This document shows positions 2,439 through 59,452 of a stretch of 64,000 bases of DNA, piece after piece. The stretch's first letter is position 1. The number at the start of each line of letters is the position of its first letter. Origin of the DNA: an uncultured Dehalococcoidales bacterium (GTDB taxonomy: Bacteria; Chloroflexota; Dehalococcoidia; Dehalococcoidales; UBA2162); NCBI GenBank assembly GCA_964453525.1, contig CAYVOV010000009.1, positions 64,686-128,685 of the forward strand, given 5' to 3'. The notes below the pieces were generated by a model, which worked only from the letters and a program-made list of their open reading frames with translations, did no database searches and had not been told where the DNA came from. Made by a program: the position numbers and the translations under genes.

Positions 2439-3116
2439 ATGAAATGGAGTAAATCGCTCGACATATTTGCTATATTTATGCTTTATGTCATTGTCATTAC
2501 TATTGGCATCATTATGATAGTTTACTTAGTAGTGACTCCGAATCTTGAAACAAATGATAAAGTTGGAATTACAATGGCGATAAGCACGGTGGCACTTGTC
2601 GTTGTTACAGGTGTCTATGCTTGGCACACGCATAAAATGGCTGAGGAGATGAGAGAGCAAAGGATAATAACATCACGTCCAGTAATCATTTTAAAACCTG
2701 TACATGAAAAAGATATTTGGGAGGGAAGTACTAAGGATTATTTTTCACATTTTGAAATTTCTAATGTAGGAAATAGCCCTGCAATCGAGTTGGAAAGTTC
2801 ACTTACGGCCAATAAACATGATTACTCCAGTAGTATCCGACAAACATATTTGAGGAAAGATGATGATCCCGTTAAATTTCGCCCTTATAATATTTCGAGT
2901 CTGGAACAAAATAAAACATACTACCTTATTTGCGAATATCAAAACGTATTTCCTTATGATGTTCAAAAACCGTTCTATCAAACGTGTTTACCTTTTAAAA
3001 TGAGGGAATCCGGCGAAAAAGGAAAAATATACATTGTAGCTGGCGAATTAGAATTTACAGAAGTATCAGAAGAAGAACGTATTGATGCGTTCGGAAGTAG
3101 GAGTAAACCAAAATGA
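2439..3116 (+). CDS. hypothetical membrane protein (2 N-terminal TM helices; paralogue of 22700..23428)
   Basis: GGAGG lies 7 nt upstream of the ATG. There are two hydrophobic helices, then EQRIITSRPVIIL and FEISNVGNSPA motifs that are shared with ORF 22700. The gene is AT-rich (~33% G+C by hand count of one 60-nt line) inside the trp operon. Confidence 0.7.
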   Translation: MKWSKSLDIFAIFMLYVIVITIGIIMIVYLVVTPNLETNDKVGITMAISTVALVVVTGVYAWHTHKMAEEMREQRIITSRPVIILKPVHEKDIWEGSTKDYFSHFEISNVGNSPAIELESSLTANKHDYSSSIRQTYLRKDDDPVKFRPYNISSLEQNKTYYLICEYQNVFPYDVQKPFYQTCLPFKMRESGEKGKIYIVAGELEFTEVSEEERIDAFGSRSKPK

Positions 3117-3205
3117 TTAAAGAAGCAATTCAGACCATTATTGGTAACAGGCCGGCTACCAGCTGCTCCGTTCGCCCTTCGACAGGCTCAGGGCGAATGA
3201 TGTAA
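3113..3205 (+). other. duplicated remnant of the trpD RBS/start (30-codon ORF running into a repeat)
   Basis: atgattaaagaagcaatt (3113-3130) matches the real trpD start atgattagagaagcaatt (3819-3836) at 17/18 nt. MIKEAIQTII compares with MIREAISMLV. The ATG overlaps the stop of ORF 2439..3116 (ATGA). Confidence 0.75.
3168..3199 (+). repeat. 'Rep-2' hairpin (gttcgYcc-ttcgacaRgctca-ggRcgaac family)
   Basis: ccgttcgcccttcgacaggctcagggcgaatg lies 12 nt upstream of the GIY-YIG start. The same unit recurs at 3484, 3553 and 3749. Confidence 0.85.
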
Positions 3206-3210
3206 AGCAA

Positions 3211-3543
3211 ATGAGTTTTTGGGTTTATATTTTACTATGTGCAGATAACTCCTACTACACCGGACATACTGACAATCTTGAGGAGCGCATCGCTAAACAT
3301 CAGACCGGTGAAATTACCGGCTATACATCCAGCAGACGTCCGGTTAAATTACTTTTTACACAGGAGTTCTCCACCAGGGAGGAAGCTCTGGCCCGTGAGC
3401 GGCAGGTTAAAGGATGGCGTCGTAGCAAGAAGGAGGCAATGATACGGGGAGATTGGGATGAGGTGTCTCGCCTGGCTCATGAGGGTTCGTCCTTCGACAA
3501 GCTCAGGACGAACGGGTATCGACCAAAGATGAGTGAATGGTAA
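3211..3543 (+). CDS. GIY-YIG nuclease family protein (URI-domain, COG2827-like)
   Basis: FWVYILLCADNSYYTGHTDNLEERIAKHQTG...REEALARERQVKGWRRSKKEAMI is the canonical small GIY-YIG pattern. The last ~20 codons (SSFDKLRTNG...MSEW) are read from repeat sequence. Confidence 0.85.
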   Translation: MSFWVYILLCADNSYYTGHTDNLEERIAKHQTGEITGYTSSRRPVKLLFTQEFSTREEALARERQVKGWRRSKKEAMIRGDWDEVSRLAHEGSSFDKLRTNGYRPKMSEW

Positions 3544-3790
3544 ACCATGGGGGCCCGCCCTTCGACAAGCTCAGGGCGAACGGAAAACGGGCTCATCAAG
3601 AATGGAAAAGAGGCTCAGCATGAACGCATTTAAATCAAAGAAGAGTGAATAATAATCTCAGGACGAACGCATCTGAATCGAAGAGGAGTGAATGATAATC
3701 TCAGGACGAACGCATTTAAACCAGAGAGGAGTGAATAATAAACTTGTGGGCGTTCATCCTTCGACAAGCTCAGGACGAACGGATAATAAA
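3484..3790 (+). repeat. cluster of Rep-2 hairpins plus ~44-bp tandem units
   Basis: Hairpins at 3484-3515, 3553-3583 and 3749-3782. Tandem units ctcaggRcgaacgcatYtRaaYcRaagaRgagtgaatRataa at ~3502, 3613, 3657 and 3700. Confidence 0.85.
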
Positions 3791-4835: not shown

Positions 4836-4871
4836 CGGAGGTAATATTATAACAGGAGTTTCACAGTTAAT

Positions 4872-4988
4872 GTCATTCTGAGTGAAACGAAGAATCTCGG
4901 GGTGGGGAAGATAATATACTTAAAACCCCACCATGCCGAGACCCTTCGCGGAGTTTGCACTGAGCAGAGCGAATGTGCTCTGGGTGAC
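4872..4988. repeat. inverted pair of 'gtcattc...gaatgac/gggtgac' family hairpin units between trpD and trpC
   Basis: gtcattctgagtgaaacgaagaatctcggggtgggga (4872-4908) and ccccaccatgccgagacccttcgcgg...ctctgggtgac (4926-4988). Confidence 0.75.
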
Positions 4989-11255: not shown

Positions 11256-12053
11256 TTGAAAGAATTGGAAAAAGTAATCGTTGTCAAGATTGGCGGAGCG
11301 ACACTCGGCAGTCATGATACCGCTATCGAAGACATAGTCGAGCTTCAGAAGCAGGGTAAGCCGGTGCTGGTCGTACATGGCGGTGGTAAGCTTATAACCG
11401 AGTGGCTAAAAAAGCAGGGTGTAGAGACAAGCTTCGTCAGAGGCGAGCGGGTAACTGACGGACCGACCCTTGAGGTTGCAACGGCGGTGCTTGCCGGACT
11501 GGTGAATAAGGATATCGTTAGTGCTATTAATGCTCTGGGTGGCAAGGCAGTCGGTATAAGCGGCGTTGACGGGGCTGTTATCCAGGGTAAGATTGCCGAA
11601 AAGGAGAAGGGCTATGTTGGCACCGTGACCAAGGTAGATACGAGCCTGCTGGAGGCTCTACTTGAGGCGGGCTTTACTCCGGTGGTCTCCCCGATTGGGC
11701 TTAATTCCGGTGACAGACCGGCTGATGAACCGCCGACGCTCAACTATAATGCCGATGTCATCGCCGGTGAAATAGCTGCTGCCATAAATGCTGAAAGGCT
11801 GGTCTTTCTGACAGATGTGGAGGGCGTCAGTGATGAATCAGGTAAACTTATTTCTTTAATGACTCCTGAAGAAGCCAATGCTTTGCTAGATTCGGGTGTT
11901 GCCTCTGGTGGAATGATTCCCAAGATTAAAGCCTGCCTTACAGCTTCATCAGTTACCCCATCGACGTGTATTATAGATGGTAGAAAATCCCACGCCCTCT
12001 TGAGCGAGATAGGGGGAAAAAGTAAGGGAACGGTTATACAACAGGGGAGTTAA
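11256..12053 (+). CDS. argB: acetylglutamate kinase
   Basis: VVKIGGA, VLVVHGGG and NYNADVIAGEIA motifs. TTG start. Confidence 0.92.
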   Translation: MKELEKVIVVKIGGATLGSHDTAIEDIVELQKQGKPVLVVHGGGKLITEWLKKQGVETSFVRGERVTDGPTLEVATAVLAGLVNKDIVSAINALGGKAVGISGVDGAVIQGKIAEKEKGYVGTVTKVDTSLLEALLEAGFTPVVSPIGLNSGDRPADEPPTLNYNADVIAGEIAAAINAERLVFLTDVEGVSDESGKLISLMTPEEANALLDSGVASGGMIPKIKACLTASSVTPSTCIIDGRKSHALLSEIGGKSKGTVIQQGS

Positions 12054-12061
12054 AGGGGGGT

Positions 12062-12208
12062 GAAGCCCCTAATCCAAGACTGATATCCCCCTTTAGAAAA
12101 GGGGGATTAAGGGGGATTTTATAAATCCCTATCGGTCTCCCCTTCGACAGGCTCAGGGTAAGCTCTTTACGAAAGGGAGAGGTTAAAAAAAGAAATTCTA
12201 AGGAATGA
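12062..12208 (+). repeat. Rep-1 composite repeat (copy 2)
   Basis: gaagcccctaatccaagactgatatccccctttagaaaagggggattaagggggattttataaatccctatcggtctccccttcgacaggctcagggtaagctctttacgaaagggagaggttaaaaa. Confidence 0.9.
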
Positions 12209-16344: not shown

Positions 16345-16505
16345 GTGAAGAGGGACAAAGCCCCTTCTCCAAGACCAATATCCCCCTTTTTAAAAGGGGG
16401 ATTAAGGGAGATTTAATCATAAATCCCTCTCAATCTCCCCTTCGACAGGCTCAGGGCAAGCTCTTTACGAAAGGGAGAGGTTAAAAAGGAATTTTGGAGA
16501 ATGAC
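16345..16505 (+). repeat. Rep-1 composite repeat (copy 3)
   Basis: gaagagggacaaagccccttctccaagaccaatatccccctttttaaaagggggattaagggagatttaatcataaatccctctcaatctccccttcgacaggctcagggcaagctctttacgaaagggagaggttaaaaaggaatttt. Confidence 0.9.
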
Positions 16506-22699: not shown

Positions 22700-23428
22700 G
22701 TGAAAATGATTAATAATACTATCAAGATTGGATTGAAAGTAATAATTGTTCTGTGTTTACTAACGCTTCCAATCGTATTTATATCGCTGTGGAATGTACC
22801 TTTGGCTCAAAGTATATTCCCGTTCCTAGAAATTTCAACAGAATTCCCCTCAAAAATAATCGCTGGTTACACTGCGGTATTAGCTTGGGCTACAATATTA
22901 CTCGGATATTTTGCTTTTTCCACGATACAAAATAATAAAGAGCAAAGGTTAGACAGTTTTCGTCCTTTACTTGTACCAGCTGGTGGCTCACTTGGTATTG
23001 GATATATAAAACACTCAGAATCAGGATATGAGAGTCTCTCAGGTGAAAACATGCTTCATGTGCACAATATCGGTGTGGGACCTGCCGAAAATATAGCCAT
23101 ACGACTGGAACTACGGTCTGATAAAGGAGCACATAATGTTCAATTGGATGAGATGTTAACTTTCGTTGAGCCGCTTGCATCAGGTCATAAGGGAATAGTT
23201 CGTCAATGGAAGACCATTGAACAGGAGGTTGAAATCTACGATGACCATTGGCTAGTTATTAGCTATGATGACTTGTTCCACCGTCATTTTGAGACGGAGG
23301 CTCGATACATAAAGGAAAGTTGTAGTTGGGTAAGTATGAGAACCATACAAGTAAGAAAACTTCGTCCGCGCGGAAGGGATATAGATTACTACTCAGGTCT
23401 TTCTGGCGATAGCGAAGAACAGAATTAA
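22700..23428 (+). CDS. hypothetical membrane protein (2 N-terminal TM helices; paralogue of 2439..3116)
   Basis: Starts 3 nt after the recG stop. Two hydrophobic helices are followed by EQRLDSFRPLLV and LHVHNIGVGPA motifs, matching ORF 2439. AT-rich relative to its flanks. Confidence 0.7.
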   Translation: MKMINNTIKIGLKVIIVLCLLTLPIVFISLWNVPLAQSIFPFLEISTEFPSKIIAGYTAVLAWATILLGYFAFSTIQNNKEQRLDSFRPLLVPAGGSLGIGYIKHSESGYESLSGENMLHVHNIGVGPAENIAIRLELRSDKGAHNVQLDEMLTFVEPLASGHKGIVRQWKTIEQEVEIYDDHWLVISYDDLFHRHFETEARYIKESCSWVSMRTIQVRKLRPRGRDIDYYSGLSGDSEEQN

Positions 23429-23486
23429 GTTATGATTAGGTAGCAGTACAGGTTTTTCCCTGTTAAGGATAAGCCAAGGAGTATCT

Positions 23487-23507
23487 AAGAGGGGCTTCGC
23501 CCCTCTT
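23487..23507 (+). terminator. GC-rich UUCG-loop hairpin ('Rep-3' core), terminator-like
   Basis: aagaggggc-ttcg-cccctctt followed by cctagtttcttcc, 59 nt after the stop of ORF 22700. Confidence 0.4.
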
Positions 23508-23517
23508 CCTAGTTTCT

Positions 23518-23688
23518 TCCCCCTCTCCTTTGATAAAGGAGAGGGGGATACAGGGGGTGAGGTTTCATTAATTTTATTGCCTGCTCCACCCTGAGATTCT
23601 TCGCCCACCAGAGGTGGGCTCCAGAATGACACCATGTGATTTGTCATGCTGGAGGGAGCGCAGCGACCGAAGCATCTCAGGGAGGGGG
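23518..23688. repeat. Rep-3 second hairpin plus an inverted pair of 'ccaccctgagattcttcg...ccagaatgac' units
   Basis: cccctctcctttgataaaggagagggg; unit 23584-23630; inverted variant gtcatgctggagggagcgcagcgaccgaagcatctcagggaggg at 23643-23686. Confidence 0.85.
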
Positions 23689-23723
23689 TTAGAGAACAGC
23701 GGTCACGTGGTATAATCACTTTC

Positions 23724-24032
23724 GTGAAACAATATTATGTTTACATTATGTCTAATAAATCCGGCACTTTGTATACCGGGATAACTAATGATTTGGAGCA
23801 GCGTGTCTGCCAACACAAGAGCCAGCAAATCGAAGGTTTTACTAAAAAATACAGAGTTACCCACCTTCTATATTTTGAGTCCACTGATGACGTTACTACG
23901 GCAATTATGAGAGAAAAACAAATAAAAGGAATGCTAAGAAGTAAGAAAATCGAACTGATAAAAACAATCAATCCGCAGTTGAAAGATTTAAGTGGGGACT
24001 GGTTGGATAAGAATGGCACCTCCCCACCCTAA
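23724..24032 (+). CDS. GIY-YIG nuclease family protein (URI-domain, COG2827-like)
   Basis: KQYYVYIMSNKSGTLYTGITNDLEQRVCQHK...REKQIKGMLRSKKIELI. GTG 23724 is chosen so that the first beta-strand (YYVYI) is included; the start is uncertain (track ORF starts at 23646, ATG at 23748). TGgTATAAT lies at 23708-23716. The stop codon lies inside the downstream repeat. Confidence 0.8.
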   Translation: MKQYYVYIMSNKSGTLYTGITNDLEQRVCQHKSQQIEGFTKKYRVTHLLYFESTDDVTTAIMREKQIKGMLRSKKIELIKTINPQLKDLSGDWLDKNGTSPP

Positions 24033-24205
24033 GATTCTTCGCCCACCAGAGGTGAGCTCCAGAATGACAGTTGAGTTTGCGATTACCGCATCACCCGCCG
24101 AAGGCGGACTCCTCACAACGACAAAGGAAGTGCTCCTTGCAATGACAGAAGAAACACTTCTGTGCAATGACAGAGGAAATGCTACATACCATGACACATT
24201 GATTA
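24021..24205 (+). repeat. direct copy of the 45-nt unit plus a run of short '...gcaatgac' hairpin units
   Basis: tccccaccctaagattcttcgcccaccagaggtgagctccagaatgac (24021-24068) differs from 23584-23630 at about 2-3 positions. It is followed by cccgccgaaggcgg, aaggaagtgctccttgcaatgac and agaagaaacacttctgtgcaatgac. Confidence 0.85.
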
Positions 24206-24451
24206 CCCCCTCCGGTCAGCTTTGTGTTATAATTTTTGGGTTGACACCTCAGATAACTCAGACCGGAGGATACTGACACGGAAATACTTGAAATACGGAA
24301 TAGATTAGCCGGGCTTTTAAACGGGGCGGCGGCTGAAGCCCAGAAGGCAGGCTCGCTGCCCTCGGTAGCTTTACCGGAGGTAACCATTGAGCGTCCCCAG
24401 AATCCGGAGCACGGAGACTATGCCTCAAGCTTTGCTCTAAGACTGGCGAGA

Positions 24452-29149: not shown

Positions 29150-29300
29150 AGGAGAGTGAAGAAGGGCGAAACTCCTCCACCAAGACCAATCTCCCCTTTT
29201 TTTAAAGGGGGATTTATAAAAAATCCCTCTCAGTCTCCTTCAGGATGAATCCCTTTACGAAAGGGAGAGGTACAAAAGGAATTTTATGGGCTGATAAACA
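29150..29300 (+). repeat. Rep-1 composite repeat (copy 4, degenerate)
   Basis: gaagaagggcgaaactcctccaccaagaccaatctcccctttttttaaagggggatttataaaaaatccctctcagtctccttcaggatgaatccctttacgaaagggagaggtacaaaaggaatttt. Confidence 0.85.
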
Positions 29301-31506: not shown

Positions 31507-31602
31507 TTTATTCCCTCCAAAAGAAATATTCTATCAGTTGCTACGGCTGAGTGTCAAGCGTGTGTGACATTGGTTCTATTTGCATTTGGCTGTTTTTCTT
31601 TA

Positions 31603-31729
31603 CCTCACCCCTTGCCCCTCTCCGGCCCGAACCATTGAAAATTGTTGAAAAGCATTTAAGGCCGGAGAGGGGAGAAATATAGAGAGGGATAAAGGGGGTG
31701 ACAAATTTATACCAAACAAAACCGAACAG
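31603..31729 (+). repeat. 'Rep-4' composite repeat (short copy)
   Basis: cctcaccccttgcccctctccggcc...ggccggagagggg...agggggtgacaaatttataccaaacaaaaccgaacag. A longer copy lies at 45646-45856. Confidence 0.8.
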
Positions 31730-35972: not shown

Positions 35973-36134
35973 CCTTCCCAGATATTTTAAAAGGGAAATG
36001 TGAGTATTAATCCACTTTCTAGTAGAATAATTTAACCTAGTGGAATATCCAAAGGCAGGTTGAACTCGAATAGTTGTACAAGGATATGCATGGGTGAATC
36101 CCTGGGCAAGCAAGTTCCGGCACAGCGGGAAGTC

Positions 36135-36370
36135 TAAGAGGGGCTCCGCCCCCTCTTCTATGGCTATTTCTTCCTTCCCCTTGAGAAGGGGCCTTGCCTC
36201 AAAAGTCATTCTGGAGTCCGCCTCTGGCGGACGAAGAATCTCAGGGTGGGGAGTCAAGGTAATCCCCTCCTCCCTGAGACCCTTCGCTACGCTCCAGGGT
36301 GACAGGAACACACGACTTTTAGGGCAAGACTTTGGGAAGGGGAAGGGGGATACAGGGGGATAGGGTTCTA
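36135..36370. repeat. nested repeats: Rep-3 hairpins interrupted by 'gtcattctggag...agaatctcagggtgg' units
   Basis: taagaggggctccgccccctctt (36135-36157); gtcattctggagtccgcctctggcggacgaagaatctcagggtgggga (36205-36252); ccctgagacccttcgctacgctccagggtgac; ggggaagggggatacagggggatagggtt. Confidence 0.8.
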
Positions 36371-36388
36371 TAAATTAGGGGAGGCGAA

Positions 36389-42863: not shown

Positions 42864-42901
42864 TTCTGTTTAAAATAATTACTTGAGATGTAGAGGGCGT
42901 T

Positions 42902-42982
42902 AAGAGGGACTTCGTCCCTCTTTAAAATCCTTCCCCTTCCCCTTTCTAAGGGGAAGGGGATTAAGGGGATGGGGTTAAAAAC
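42902..42982 (+). repeat. Rep-3 composite (UUCG-type hairpin + ccccttcccctttctaaggggaagggg hairpin)
   Basis: aagagggacttcgtccctctt followed by ccttccccttcccctttctaaggggaaggggattaaggggatggggtt. Confidence 0.8.
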
Positions 42983-44832: not shown

Positions 44833-44897
44833 AGAATAATTACGAACCATTTGTTAAACTATTGGCTACCTAAACATTAATGCAAATAATCGGGGAG

Positions 44898-44930
44898 TTT
44901 AAGAGGGGCGCAAGTCCCTCTTAATTTTCA
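44898..44930 (+). terminator. terminator-like hairpin (Rep-3 core) after serS
   Basis: tttaagaggg-gcgcaagt-ccctcttaattttca. Confidence 0.45.
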
Positions 44931-44959: not shown

Positions 44960-45180
44960 TAATTGGAGACCCTTCGACAAGCTCAGGGTGAGCGGGAGTG
45001 AATGCCGCTCATGGTGAGCAGTTAGCCTGTCCTGAGCGAAGCCGAAGGAAACTATAGCGGCAAAAGAAATATAGATATTCATTGTTGCCTGTGCAACTAT
45101 GATTAAGTAAAAGGGTTCATCCTGAAGGCTTGACCTGAAGGGTGGTGGGTGGGAATAGATAATAATTGGGGGTGGGGTTG
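44960..45180. repeat. mixed hairpin repeats (Rep-2 unit and others)
   Basis: gagacccttcgacaagctcagggtgagcgg (44966-44995); ctgtcctgagcgaagccgaagg; ggtggtgggtgggaatagataata (also found near 40240). Confidence 0.7.
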
Positions 45181-45526: not shown

Positions 45527-45645
45527 ATCTCCTTTGAGAATAAGTAATGTGGTTCAGTTCCTATTATTTATAACGTGAATTATCGCAAAAAGTTGCCGGT
45601 ATATTGTATTTTCTAGTACTGTTTGTGTGTGGTTGATATTTTTTG

Positions 45646-45856
45646 CCTCACCCCTTGCCCCTCTCCAGCCAGAACCACTGAAATGAAAGAAATGTTCAAT
45701 TTGGCTGGAGAGGGGTGTAAAAGAGAGAGGGGGCGGAGCCCCCTCTCAATAATCTCTCACCCCCTCTCAAACGGGCGAATAATCACTTATAAATCAGGGG
45801 GCTGTTTGAGAGGGGGACCAAGGGGGTGAGCACTTTATTCAACCAAAACCAAACAG
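45646..45856 (+). repeat. Rep-4 composite repeat (long copy)
   Basis: cctcaccccttgcccctctccagcc...ggctggagagggg...gggggcggagccccc...gggggtgagcactttattcaaccaaaaccaaacag. Confidence 0.8.
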
Positions 45857-48842: not shown

Positions 48843-49039
48843 GTCATTCTGCCCTTTGTCAAGTATGTAGTAAACTACAGCGGGAACCCGGAATTTCTAC
48901 ACTGTCATTCCCGCACCGTAAAAAGCACGGGGTAAACTCCAAGCGGGAATCAAGTACTACCACGCCGTCATTCCAGCGGAAGCTGGAATCCAGCGGGGGA
49001 AAACGGGGTCTGGATTCTCGGGTCAAGCCCGAGAATGAC
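48843..49039. repeat. array of 'gtcattcc...ggaatc / attctc...gagaatgac' hairpin units
   Basis: gtcattcccgcaccgtaaaaagcacggggtaaactccaagcgggaatc; gtcattccagcggaagctggaatc; tggattctcgggtcaagcccgagaatgac. Confidence 0.85.
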
Positions 49040-49074
49040 ATCAAGCAGCAATCTCGAAAGGGGGATAATGAATC

Positions 49075-58639: not shown

Positions 58640-59452
58640 TCATCCCGGCATTTCTGCCGAAATGTCCCGGAGCCTTTTCATCGCTTCCTCGGTTCCTATT
58701 TTGCCTTGCTTTAATTCTTCGTTCGTAATCTCCACTATTTCAAGAAATTTCTCAAGGTTTTTATACTGGTCTTGGGTAATGGGTAATGAGAGCAATGGCT
58801 CAACAACTTCACGGTAAAGCTCAAGTTCGATTCTTTCAGAAGTGTCTAAATCCGCACCCTGAGTTTTTTCCAAGGTTGCTAAATCAGCCTCCAGAGTTTT
58901 TTTAGCTTCTTCTATACTTTGCCTTATCTTTTCCCCGGTTTCTTCAGCCTCGGCAGCTTTCCTTGTTTCTTCGGCTTCGGCAGCTTTCCTGGCTTTCTCG
59001 GCTTCGGCAGCTTTCCTGGCTTCTTCGGCCTCACGTCTGGCTCTCTCTTTAGCTTCCTTTTCAGCCTGTTTCTTTGCCTGCTTTTCAGCTTCGGCAGCTT
59101 TCCTGGCTTCTTCAGCTTCTTCGGCTCCAACAGCGTCAGTTGCTTCTTCAGCCTTACCAGTTTCCTCGGCCTGGGCGGTTGACCCTGCTTCATCTGACGC
59201 CTCTTTGGTCTTTTCCCAGGCTGCTATATCAGCCGCCAGAGCTTTCTTAGCCTCTTCTATCTCCCTGGCGGCTTTTTCAATGGCATCAATCCTGGCCTGC
59301 CTTTCGGCTTCAGCAGCCTTCTTGCTTTCAGCAGCCTTCCTGCTTTCAACAACCCTCCGGCGTCCCCGTAAGCCACGCCCCCGCAACGGGTAATTACACC
59401 ACTGGCAGTTATCACCGCTGGTTATCTGTCCGCAATTAGGACATCTCGGCAT
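58640..59452 (-). CDS. zinc-ribbon protein with long Ala/Glu/Lys-rich repeat region
   Basis: MPRCPNCGQITSGDNCQWCNYPL is followed by reiterated EEARKAAEAE(K/E) units. The matching nucleotide tandem repeats lie at ~58960-59120. Confidence 0.65.
   Translation of the reverse strand: MPRCPNCGQITSGDNCQWCNYPLRGRGLRGRRRVVESRKAAESKKAAEAERQARIDAIEKAAREIEEAKKALAADIAAWEKTKEASDEAGSTAQAEETGKAEEATDAVGAEEAEEARKAAEAEKQAKKQAEKEAKERARREAEEARKAAEAEKARKAAEAEETRKAAEAEETGEKIRQSIEEAKKTLEADLATLEKTQGADLDTSERIELELYREVVEPLLSLPITQDQYKNLEKFLEIVEITNEELKQGKIGTEEAMKRLRDISAEMPG

Follow-up and report, generated by a model that had tools for sequence, protein, structure and literature searches.

An Ssn-like GIY-YIG nuclease gene and its hairpin repeats at a syntenic locus of an uncultured Dehalococcoidales bacterium

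We analysed a small gene for a predicted GIY-YIG nuclease and the hairpin repeats around it, which resemble the Ssn-related motifs (SRMs) of the system named Ssn/SRM (Chenal et al., 2025, Nat Commun 16:2388; PMC11893778), in a 64,000-nucleotide (nt) stretch of contig CAYVOV010000009.1 from an uncultured Dehalococcoidales bacterium (hereafter the window, to which all unlabelled positions refer). The gene, here called ssn-like, lies on the plus strand at 23724–24032, starts with GTG and encodes a predicted single-domain nuclease of 102 amino acids (aa). As an earlier note on this DNA had claimed, near-identical direct repeats stand on either side of it. A repeat search of the window returned two 46-nt copies (family D12) at 23586–23631 and 24024–24069 that are 96% identical, with 2 mismatches, and the 34-nt core of the repeat, with at most 3 mismatches, occurs exactly twice in the window; a chance repeat was rejected given that 0.00 copies were expected in 100 shuffles. 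Both copies are SRM-like hairpins whose GTCAT-bearing strand is the minus strand. The left copy reads TGTCATTCTGGAG-CCCACCTCTGGTGGG-CGAAGAATCTCAGGGTGG and folds as DNA into a nested hairpin (−9.5 kcal/mol, z −1.95), and the right copy (24023–24069; plus strand ...CCCCACCCTAAGATTCTTCG-CCCACCAGAGGTGAG-CTCCAGAATGACA) forms the downstream terminal hairpin and spans the stop codon of the gene, a TAA at 24030–24032, again as described before. The inverted copy of the motif reported between the repeats is also present: a diverged SRM-like hairpin at 23641–23686 on the plus strand (TGTCATGCTGGAG...GAAGCATCTCAGGGAGGGGG; within 23643–23686 it reads GTCATGCTGGAG...GAAGCATCTCAGGGAGGGGG), which retains its outer 5-bp stem ATGCT/AGCAT, has lost its inner hairpin, and constitutes the upstream terminal hairpin of a hairpin–gene–hairpin unit. 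The locus of one relative (P0044) has an upstream hairpin of matching position and orientation.

Hairpins of the frame GTC–palindrome–C thereby flank the gene on both sides, at 23596–23630 (minus strand), 23643–23675 (plus strand) and 24034–24068 (minus strand). In the gene-flanking hairpins the outer stem is short (ATTCT/AGAAT), the interior is of the form CTGGAG...CGAAG and a second hairpin is nested within; they also carry a CTCAGGGTGGGG extension, which occurs in the window's subclade and is the source of the stop codon and of the 'SPP' C-termini of many homologues. Four degenerate hairpin remnants follow in a run at 24070–24200 (minus strand), recognised in the sequence by plus-strand ends (A)ATGACA or ACGACA, and one counterpart of them (...GTAATGACAG) was found in the locus of another relative (L082). 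The promoter-like box that the earlier note had pointed out, an extended −10-like TGgTATAAT at 23708–23716 on the plus strand, 7 nt ahead of the GTG start, is present and kept in relatives, but a sigma-70 scan called no −35/−10 pair there. In L082 (box region 3113–3137), whose Ssn protein is 72.5% identical, TGaTATAAT is likewise followed by 7 nt and GTG, and in L084 (about 2980–3003) TGcTATAAT stands 10 nt upstream of ATG, directly after the upstream hairpin. Transcription would probably start from this TGnTATAAT box, immediately after the upstream hairpin, and given that in three diverged loci only 7–10 nt separate the box from the start codon, the pattern suggests a leaderless or near-leaderless transcript. 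Rfam at gathering threshold found a single tRNA and nothing else in the whole window, and a permissive Rfam search of 23400–24300 gave only chance microRNA and small nucleolar RNA matches, far under threshold.

The ssn-like product matches the GIY-YIG family PF01541 (E 1e-15, residues 1–73) and no other Pfam family, and no HUH/Y1 transposase was found between the repeats. We consider GTG 23724 the true start because the homologues begin MKEYYVYIM and the 102-aa product begins MKQYYVYIM; the recorded product (P0001) has 94 aa and was started at ATG 23748. We found 4600 homologues, 94–105 aa in length. In an alignment of 11 sequences Y7, Y17, G19, R27, H31 and E64 are invariant, and the catalytic residues, whose loss the earlier note had allowed for, are intact: Y7, Y17 and E64 correspond to Y6, Y17 and E64 of Neisseria meningitidis SsnA, where the mutations Y6A, Y17A and E64A abolish cleavage (PMC11893778). 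Relatives that are 60–66% identical occur across phyla, and the only other GIY-YIG protein of the window, a paralogue, is only 34% identical; each of the two genes is present in one copy in the 64 kb. NCBIfam offered no useful family for the GIY-YIG proteins, and the PDB holds only two UPF0213 structural-genomics entries among the relatives. The motif pattern GTLYxGxTxxL...GFTxxY...REKQIK appears to resemble that of cd10448 proteins.

The association of gene and hairpin recurs throughout the family. Our sample of relatives comprised 80 loci, with one genome per species, from Chloroflexota, Cloacimonadota, Acidobacteriota, Deltaproteobacteria, Rickettsiales, Clostridia, Patescibacteria and other groups. 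For each gene, the 262 nt upstream were aligned locally with the 300 nt downstream, and the best alignment scored at least 25 in 41% of 81 genes, compared with 1% of cross-locus pairs and 0% of windows of equal geometry shifted by 1.2–1.8 kb. The aligned repeats are TGTCAT-NNN-GAG...GAAG-N'N'N'-ATC modules and their reverse complements, often whole 50–160-nt units bounded by TGTCAT...ATGACA, and in several loci (e.g., L044, L015 and L061) the flanking units are 97–99% identical over 100–120 nt. A hairpin search anchored on GTCA[TC] alone detected GTC–palindrome–C hairpins within 300 nt of the gene in 79 of the 80 relatives' loci, compared with 10–20 loci in shuffles; the base 3' of the palindrome was C in 93% of these hairpins and the base 5' of GTC was T in 90%. 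The usual hairpin of the clade has a CTGAG...GAAG interior, often with a nested second hairpin, and typical outer stems of 5 bp (ATTCT/AGAAT, ATCCT/AGGAT, ATGCT/AGCAT, ATTCC/GGAAT or ACCCT/AGGGT). The hairpins concentrate close to the gene: within 200 nt upstream, 78 hairpins were TGTCAT-oriented and 30 opposite, and within 200 nt downstream 75 were ATGACA-oriented and 35 opposite, indicating that the commonest layout is hairpin–gene–inverted hairpin. The P0044 locus shows this layout in clean form, with TGcTATAAT between the upstream hairpin and the ATG. In the window the corresponding unit is 23641–24069, and the left repeat at 23586–23631 is an extra, abutting copy. The direct-repeat bracket from which the earlier note had defined its unit is therefore real, but it is one arrangement among several, the inverted layout being commoner family-wide. 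Three short-read assemblies of one relative's locus (L089, L090 and L091) end at the same base within the downstream hairpin, a shared break point that fits the hairpin being multi-copy in that genome.

The second GIY-YIG gene of the window, at 3211–3543 on the plus strand (110 aa, UPF0213-like; PF01541, E 2.5e-20), has hairpins of a different family (D3). One lies upstream of it at 3165–3203 (minus strand; TTCGCCCT-TCGACAGGCTC-AGGGCGAA; 8-bp stem, z −2.2) and another over its 3' end at 3480–3518 (minus strand; 9-bp stem, z −2.7), where the reading frame runs through the hairpin and encodes ...SSFDKLRTNG; further copies are at 3548–3586, 3747–3785, 2333–2371 and 44960–44998. The pattern of this family is TTCGyCCT-TCGACARGCTC-AGGrCGAA, with the core CCTTCGACAAGCTCAGG. 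We take its hairpin, CCGTTCGyCCTGAGC...GTCGAAGGrCGAACGG, to be a widespread repeat whose spurious open reading frames give 'PFDKLRANG', 'PSTSSGRT' and 'LRQAQGER'. Among 81 genes of the second clade (80 metagenome loci and the window's own), 62 had the CCTTCGACAAGCTCAGG core in the 300 nt upstream, 64 had it in the 300 nt downstream and 52 had it on both sides, compared with 6 of the 80 loci of the first clade; conversely, GTCAT-type hairpins accompanied 15 of these 81 genes, which is the chance level, as against the 79 of 80 given above. Each clade thus has its own repeat family, as the earlier note had envisaged, and nuclease gene and hairpin repeats are a specific, recurrent pair. Of the refuting observations named in the earlier note, none was made among those examined here. 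The CCTTCGACAAGCTCAGG hairpins are also mostly inverted around the gene (upstream 66 vs. 16, downstream 73 vs. 12). Of 117 homologues of the second gene, 61 have a reading frame that continues through the downstream hairpin, whereas none of 109 ssn-like homologues does.

The second gene shares the small GIY-YIG fold and the length of UPF0213 proteins. It matches UPF0213 protein BH0048 (PDB 1ZG2) with E 8e-16 and 61.6 bits and EF2693 (PDB 1YWL) with E 1.5e-12, compared with E 5.7e-6 (29.7 bits) and E 2.3e-4 for the ssn-like protein, and hidden Markov models of the two clades scored BH0048 and EF2693 at 74.6 and 59.7 bits (second clade) and 33.7 and 23.7 bits (ssn-like clade). BH0048 and EF2693 belong to the same group as Escherichia coli YhbQ. 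We know of no published hairpin-repeat partner of UPF0213 proteins, whereas the second-gene clade has one in most loci. These sequences suggest that the nuclease–hairpin pairing extends to UPF0213-like proteins, a group that appears, in the parts of the published account considered here, to lie outside its coverage (PMC11893778); the published Ssn/SRM definition may leave this second gene–hairpin pair uncovered. Downstream of the second gene, at 3608–3743, are three tandem 43-nt units (AATCTCAGGACGAACGCATTTAAA...GAGTGAATAATA) that resemble half-hairpin arrays made of right arms only.

The earlier note had also listed gene-less copies of the flanking repeat at four sites. These belong to the same hairpin superfamily, with the common frame GTC-[AT...AT palindrome]-C and variable stems and loops, but a close copy of the flanking repeat was found only at 36205–36249 (91%), the other sites differing in stems and loops. 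Altogether, the dispersed copies amount to at least 11 well-formed hairpins at six intergenic sites in the 64 kb. The close copy is part of a gene-less inverted hairpin pair at 36198–36304 (GTCATTCTGGAG...GAAGAATCTCAGGGTGGGGAG, 18 nt, CCCTGAGACCCTTCG...CCAGGGTGACA), which is 86–91% complementary to the gene-flanking repeats and looks like the gene-bearing unit minus its gene. Another inverted pair, of stem subtype ATTGC/GCAAT, lies at 1511–1611, and the pair at 4871–4988 consists of a minimal form (GTCATTCTGAGTGAAACGAAGAATCTC) and a degenerate inverted partner ending GGGTGACA. In Neisseria, half of the dRS3 repeats take the form of a longer hairpin with a set orientation, NTS (CGTCATTCCCGCGMAVGCGGGAATCYRG; PMC11893778). 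A four-hairpin cluster at 48843–49040 of the window includes 49010–49040 and also 48966–48994 (CGTCATTCCAGCGGAAGCTGGAATCCAG), which is the Neisseria NTS consensus except for one compensated stem pair; the NTS-like copies of this cluster have fold z values of −3.3 and −5.7.

Gene and hairpins differ in their stability over time. In a groundwater relative (P0020, on a 504-kb contig) the gene order is RecG-x-ssn-ArgS as in the window, with a 233-aa gene at x that is unrelated to the one in the window, and RecG, Ssn and ArgS of the two share 76.6%, 72.5% and 74.4% of their amino acids, respectively. Given this matched divergence, ssn has been in place since the lineages split and has evolved like its neighbours, and the unit that the earlier note had called cassette-like has not recently moved as a cassette. 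An intergenic alignment of the window with L082 shows conservation of the coding sequence, of the TGnTATAAT box with its 7 nt and GTG, and of the outer portions of the 3' hairpin that extends across the stop codon, while the hairpin loops have been replaced and the upstream hairpins stand in a different order; at 3437–3490 of L082 a core of the other hairpin family (CCCTTCGACTTCGCTCAGGG) is nested within the 3' hairpin loop. Given that the loops were replaced in L082 and yet the flanking copies of the window are 96% identical, the comparison points to renewal of the hairpins by turnover or gene conversion around a fixed ssn gene. Other relatives at 73–75% identity lie in unrelated gene contexts, and together with the loci whose flanking units of about 100 nt are 97–99% identical, this makes mobility or conversion somewhere in the family plausible.

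Although the earlier note knew of no described system of this kind, one was published in 2025 as Ssn/SRM, with the analogy to repetitive extragenic palindromic (REP) elements and their REP-associated tyrosine transposases (RAYTs) included (PMC11893778). SsnA of N. meningitidis (CAX49033.1) is a 94-aa, single-domain GIY-YIG protein of CDD family cd10448, and in the regions of ssnA homologues at least one NTS-like SRM was present in 71% and SRMs on both sides in 42%; among genomes with more than 200 SRMs, 81% encode an ssnA homologue (PMC11893778). SsnA binds the hairpin as single-stranded DNA (ssDNA) only and cuts one strand a few nucleotides upstream, ssDNA-only binding and upstream cutting were shown for four homologues, and the three nucleotides 5' of the palindrome (GTC) had the greatest effect on cutting and the 3' C the greatest on binding (PMC11893778). 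In N. meningitidis SsnA reduces transformation by NTS-carrying DNA (PMC11893778). The authors likened NTS–ssnA–NTS to an insertion sequence and in their Discussion drew the analogy to IS200/IS605 and REP and suggested domestication (PMC11893778). A literature search found no later work on the Ssn family.

The window unit agrees with Ssn in the size, single domain and catalytic residues of its protein, and in the GTC and C determinants, the flanking position and the intergenic dispersal of its hairpins. In both systems a GIY-YIG protein of about 94–102 aa, identical in its catalytic Tyr, Tyr and Glu, is encoded between hairpin repeats, the hairpins carry GTC 5' of an AT-starting palindrome and C 3' of it, and extra copies are dispersed and intergenic. 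Given that all cis and trans features examined fit, the locus is best assigned to the known Ssn system. Furthermore, four of the SRM-pattern matches among the relatives are canonical NTS cores (GTCATTCCCGCG...GCGGGAATC), which ties the clade to the published Ssn family, and Rickettsiales loci are among the relatives that the window protein retrieved. The differences are the host, here an uncultured Dehalococcoidales-like Chloroflexota, and the window's flanking hairpins, whose short outer stem and CTCAGGGTGGGG extension escape the published SRM pattern. We know of no natural transformation in this host group. We therefore consider it likely, with good though not full confidence, that an Ssn-family ssDNA nuclease with its cognate hairpins resides at 23586–24069 and is probably domesticated.

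By analogy with the tested enzymes, the Ssn-like protein would recognise the hairpin only in single-stranded DNA, such as arises in replication, repair or DNA uptake. The determinants of recognition would be the palindrome together with the GTC immediately on its 5' side and the C immediately on its 3' side, and the enzyme would cut only the hairpin-bearing strand, a few nucleotides 5' of the hairpin. Between recG and argS the gene would be a long-standing resident, passed on vertically, whose hairpins are renewed faster than itself. We infer ssDNA cleavage by this protein from the four tested Ssn enzymes, and the promoter and any cellular role are likewise predictions; limiting the recombination of incoming hairpin-carrying ssDNA was shown for Neisseria only (PMC11893778).

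Several observations weigh against assignment to the Ssn system. The assignment was made by described features, and for members from Chloroflexota the enzymatic activity would follow by analogy to tested homologues. The published SRM pattern, HGTCWYN(0-2)YYVSBRHN(0-5)WNVSBRGN(0-2)RNCYNB, misses all gene-flanking copies; its matches in the window are 49010–49040 and a likely chance match in recG, and among the relatives it matched 5 of 79 loci with 8 matches, compared with 3–6 in shuffles, or about chance. The gene-flanking cis-element is thus a subtype outside the published operational SRM definition. Moreover, the DNA fold of the upstream inverted copy is no better than that of shuffles (z +0.5), and the DNA folds of most individual copies are only modestly better than those of shuffles (z −1.3 to −2.7). 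Given that the SRM pattern is an operational search tool derived from 29 genomes, we read the mismatch as a different hairpin subtype and not as exclusion from the family.

Two other known arrangements resemble the locus in part. REP elements with their RAYTs (IS200/IS605-like) also place a small nuclease gene between cognate hairpins that are dispersed genome-wide, with a short conserved motif 5' of the palindrome, and by analogy recognition of a folded single strand would be expected here too. In contrast, the two enzymes are unrelated in fold and chemistry, the one here being a hydrolytic GIY-YIG nuclease and the RAYT an HUH enzyme with a covalent tyrosine intermediate, and the 5' motif is GTC here and GTAG or GGAG there. 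Free-standing homing endonucleases such as I-TevI and the Seg proteins of T4-like phages share the GIY-YIG catalytic domain and the selfish-element flavour of flanking homology, but their C-terminus forms a DNA-binding domain and their substrate is double-stranded DNA with a single long target, whereas here a bare catalytic domain is paired with many short hairpins.

The proposal that the nuclease propagates its repeats, made in the earlier note, is unproven, the sole demonstrated role being restriction of transforming ssDNA in Neisseria (PMC11893778). In its strongest form it would make the locus an active or recently active minimal mobile element, in which the GIY-YIG nuclease moves itself and gene-less hairpin pairs resembling miniature inverted-repeat transposable elements, by ssDNA cut-and-paste or by nuclease-triggered homologous repair with the flanking repeats as arms; the published account raises the mobile-element idea as a hypothesis too (PMC11893778). 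The insertion-sequence traits of inverted terminal hairpins, present around the gene in both clades, and of gene-less derivatives, in the form of 50–160-nt units with TGTCAT...ATGACA bounds, agree with such an element, as do the near-identical flanking units in L044, L015 and L061, the close relatives in unrelated gene contexts, the higher identity across phyla than to the same-window paralogue, the foreign hairpin core nested in the L082 loop, and the turnover of hairpins around a fixed gene. However, the locus is syntenic and its divergence matches that of the neighbouring genes, the window holds a single copy of each nuclease gene, no target-site duplications were visible at the repeat ends read in the window, and presence–absence polymorphism of hairpins or gene was not seen among eight contigs carrying the identical P0044 relative, which were all alike. 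GIY-YIG enzymes are hydrolytic and we know of no strand-transfer chemistry for them, which also counts against this explanation. Transposition was not demonstrated in the published work either (PMC11893778). We consider current or recent mobility of this locus unlikely.

That the hairpins are generic intergenic ones, i.e., terminators, mRNA stabilisers or REP-like sites that have accumulated by coincidence beside a small housekeeping nuclease gene with no functional link, would agree with their position between and at the ends of genes, with the terminator-like placement of one over a stop codon, and with the unrelated palindromic repeat families that are common in the window. This explanation is contradicted by the clade-specific co-occurrence of gene and hairpin, and generic terminator hairpins were rejected on that ground and because no T-run follows the gene-flanking hairpins and a terminator scan does not call them. 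Direct binding and cleavage were moreover shown for homologues (PMC11893778), and we regard a purely coincidental association as very improbable. We give still less credence to an integron-type cassette, in which the direct repeats would be attC-like and the reading frame moved by an integrase encoded elsewhere. A small promoter-proximal reading frame between direct imperfect palindromes, with a stop codon that runs into the downstream site, recalls such a cassette; yet in many phyla this hairpin frame is found with a single gene family instead of diverse cassette genes, the recG–argS locus is syntenic and not in an array, and the candidate was rejected because the repeats end in TGTCAT/ATGACA and are without attC cores (RYYYAAC ... 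GTTRRRY). The resident Ssn-family nuclease with cognate hairpins is the explanation that we retain.

The window holds some further features. The gene immediately upstream of each GIY-YIG gene (22700–23428 and 2439–3116) encodes a membrane-anchored product without a Pfam match, and the similarity between the two as possible paralogues is borderline (E 0.027). The syntenic relative has an unrelated 233-aa gene between recG and ssn (L082 2167–2868); this slot is variable and its neighbours are conserved. An intergenic repeat family of about 100–150 nt, with the palindrome ATCCCCCTTTnnAAAAGGGGGAT and the conserved end CTTTACGAAAGGGAGAGGT, occurs at 2233–2330, 12053–12197, 16348–16495 and 29159–29285 and has no sequence relation to the GTCAT hairpins. 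Shorter families, namely AAGAGGGGCnnnGCCCCTCTT terminator-like hairpins, GGGGGATACAGGGGG boxes and a 68-nt repeat (81% identical), are found at 23477–23574, 36126–36157, 36330–36376, 31573–31710, 44891–44922, 45616–45838 and 42900–42941 and tend to adjoin GTCAT hairpins, forming mosaic intergenic clusters. Finally, a periodic 9/27-nt repeat (TTCGGCAGCTTTCCTGGCTTCTTCGGC...) in eight copies at 58931–59200 probably codes for a low-complexity, repetitive protein segment.

Given that the gene–hairpin system and the transposon analogy were published in 2025 (PMC11893778), the discovery value of our results is small. What is new here is modest: a hairpin subtype missed by the SRM pattern, an old syntenic gene with changing hairpins, and a second gene–hairpin pair. 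Since the SRM pattern misses most of a large, phylum-spanning clade, pattern-based censuses undercount systems of this type, and the published SRM census probably does so. We tentatively raise the possibility, which as a whole we hold to be rather doubtful, that the pairing of small GIY-YIG nucleases with their own hairpins is wider than the Ssn (cd10448)/SRM definition and may mark minimal hairpin-ended mobile elements; the first part of this idea is supported by the CTGAG...GAAG subtype of the clade, which escapes the SRM pattern, and by the different hairpin of the UPF0213-like clade. Should such units indeed move or convert, some of the most frequent intergenic hairpin repeats of environmental bacteria, so far unexplained, would owe their spread to the nuclease. 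Two nuclease–hairpin pairs that differ in specificity and lie within 64 kb of a Chloroflexota genome could also be useful to the proposed ssDNA-cutting toolbox, and a fixed, syntenic gene with changing hairpins bears on the question of whether these nucleases are domesticated or still mobile.

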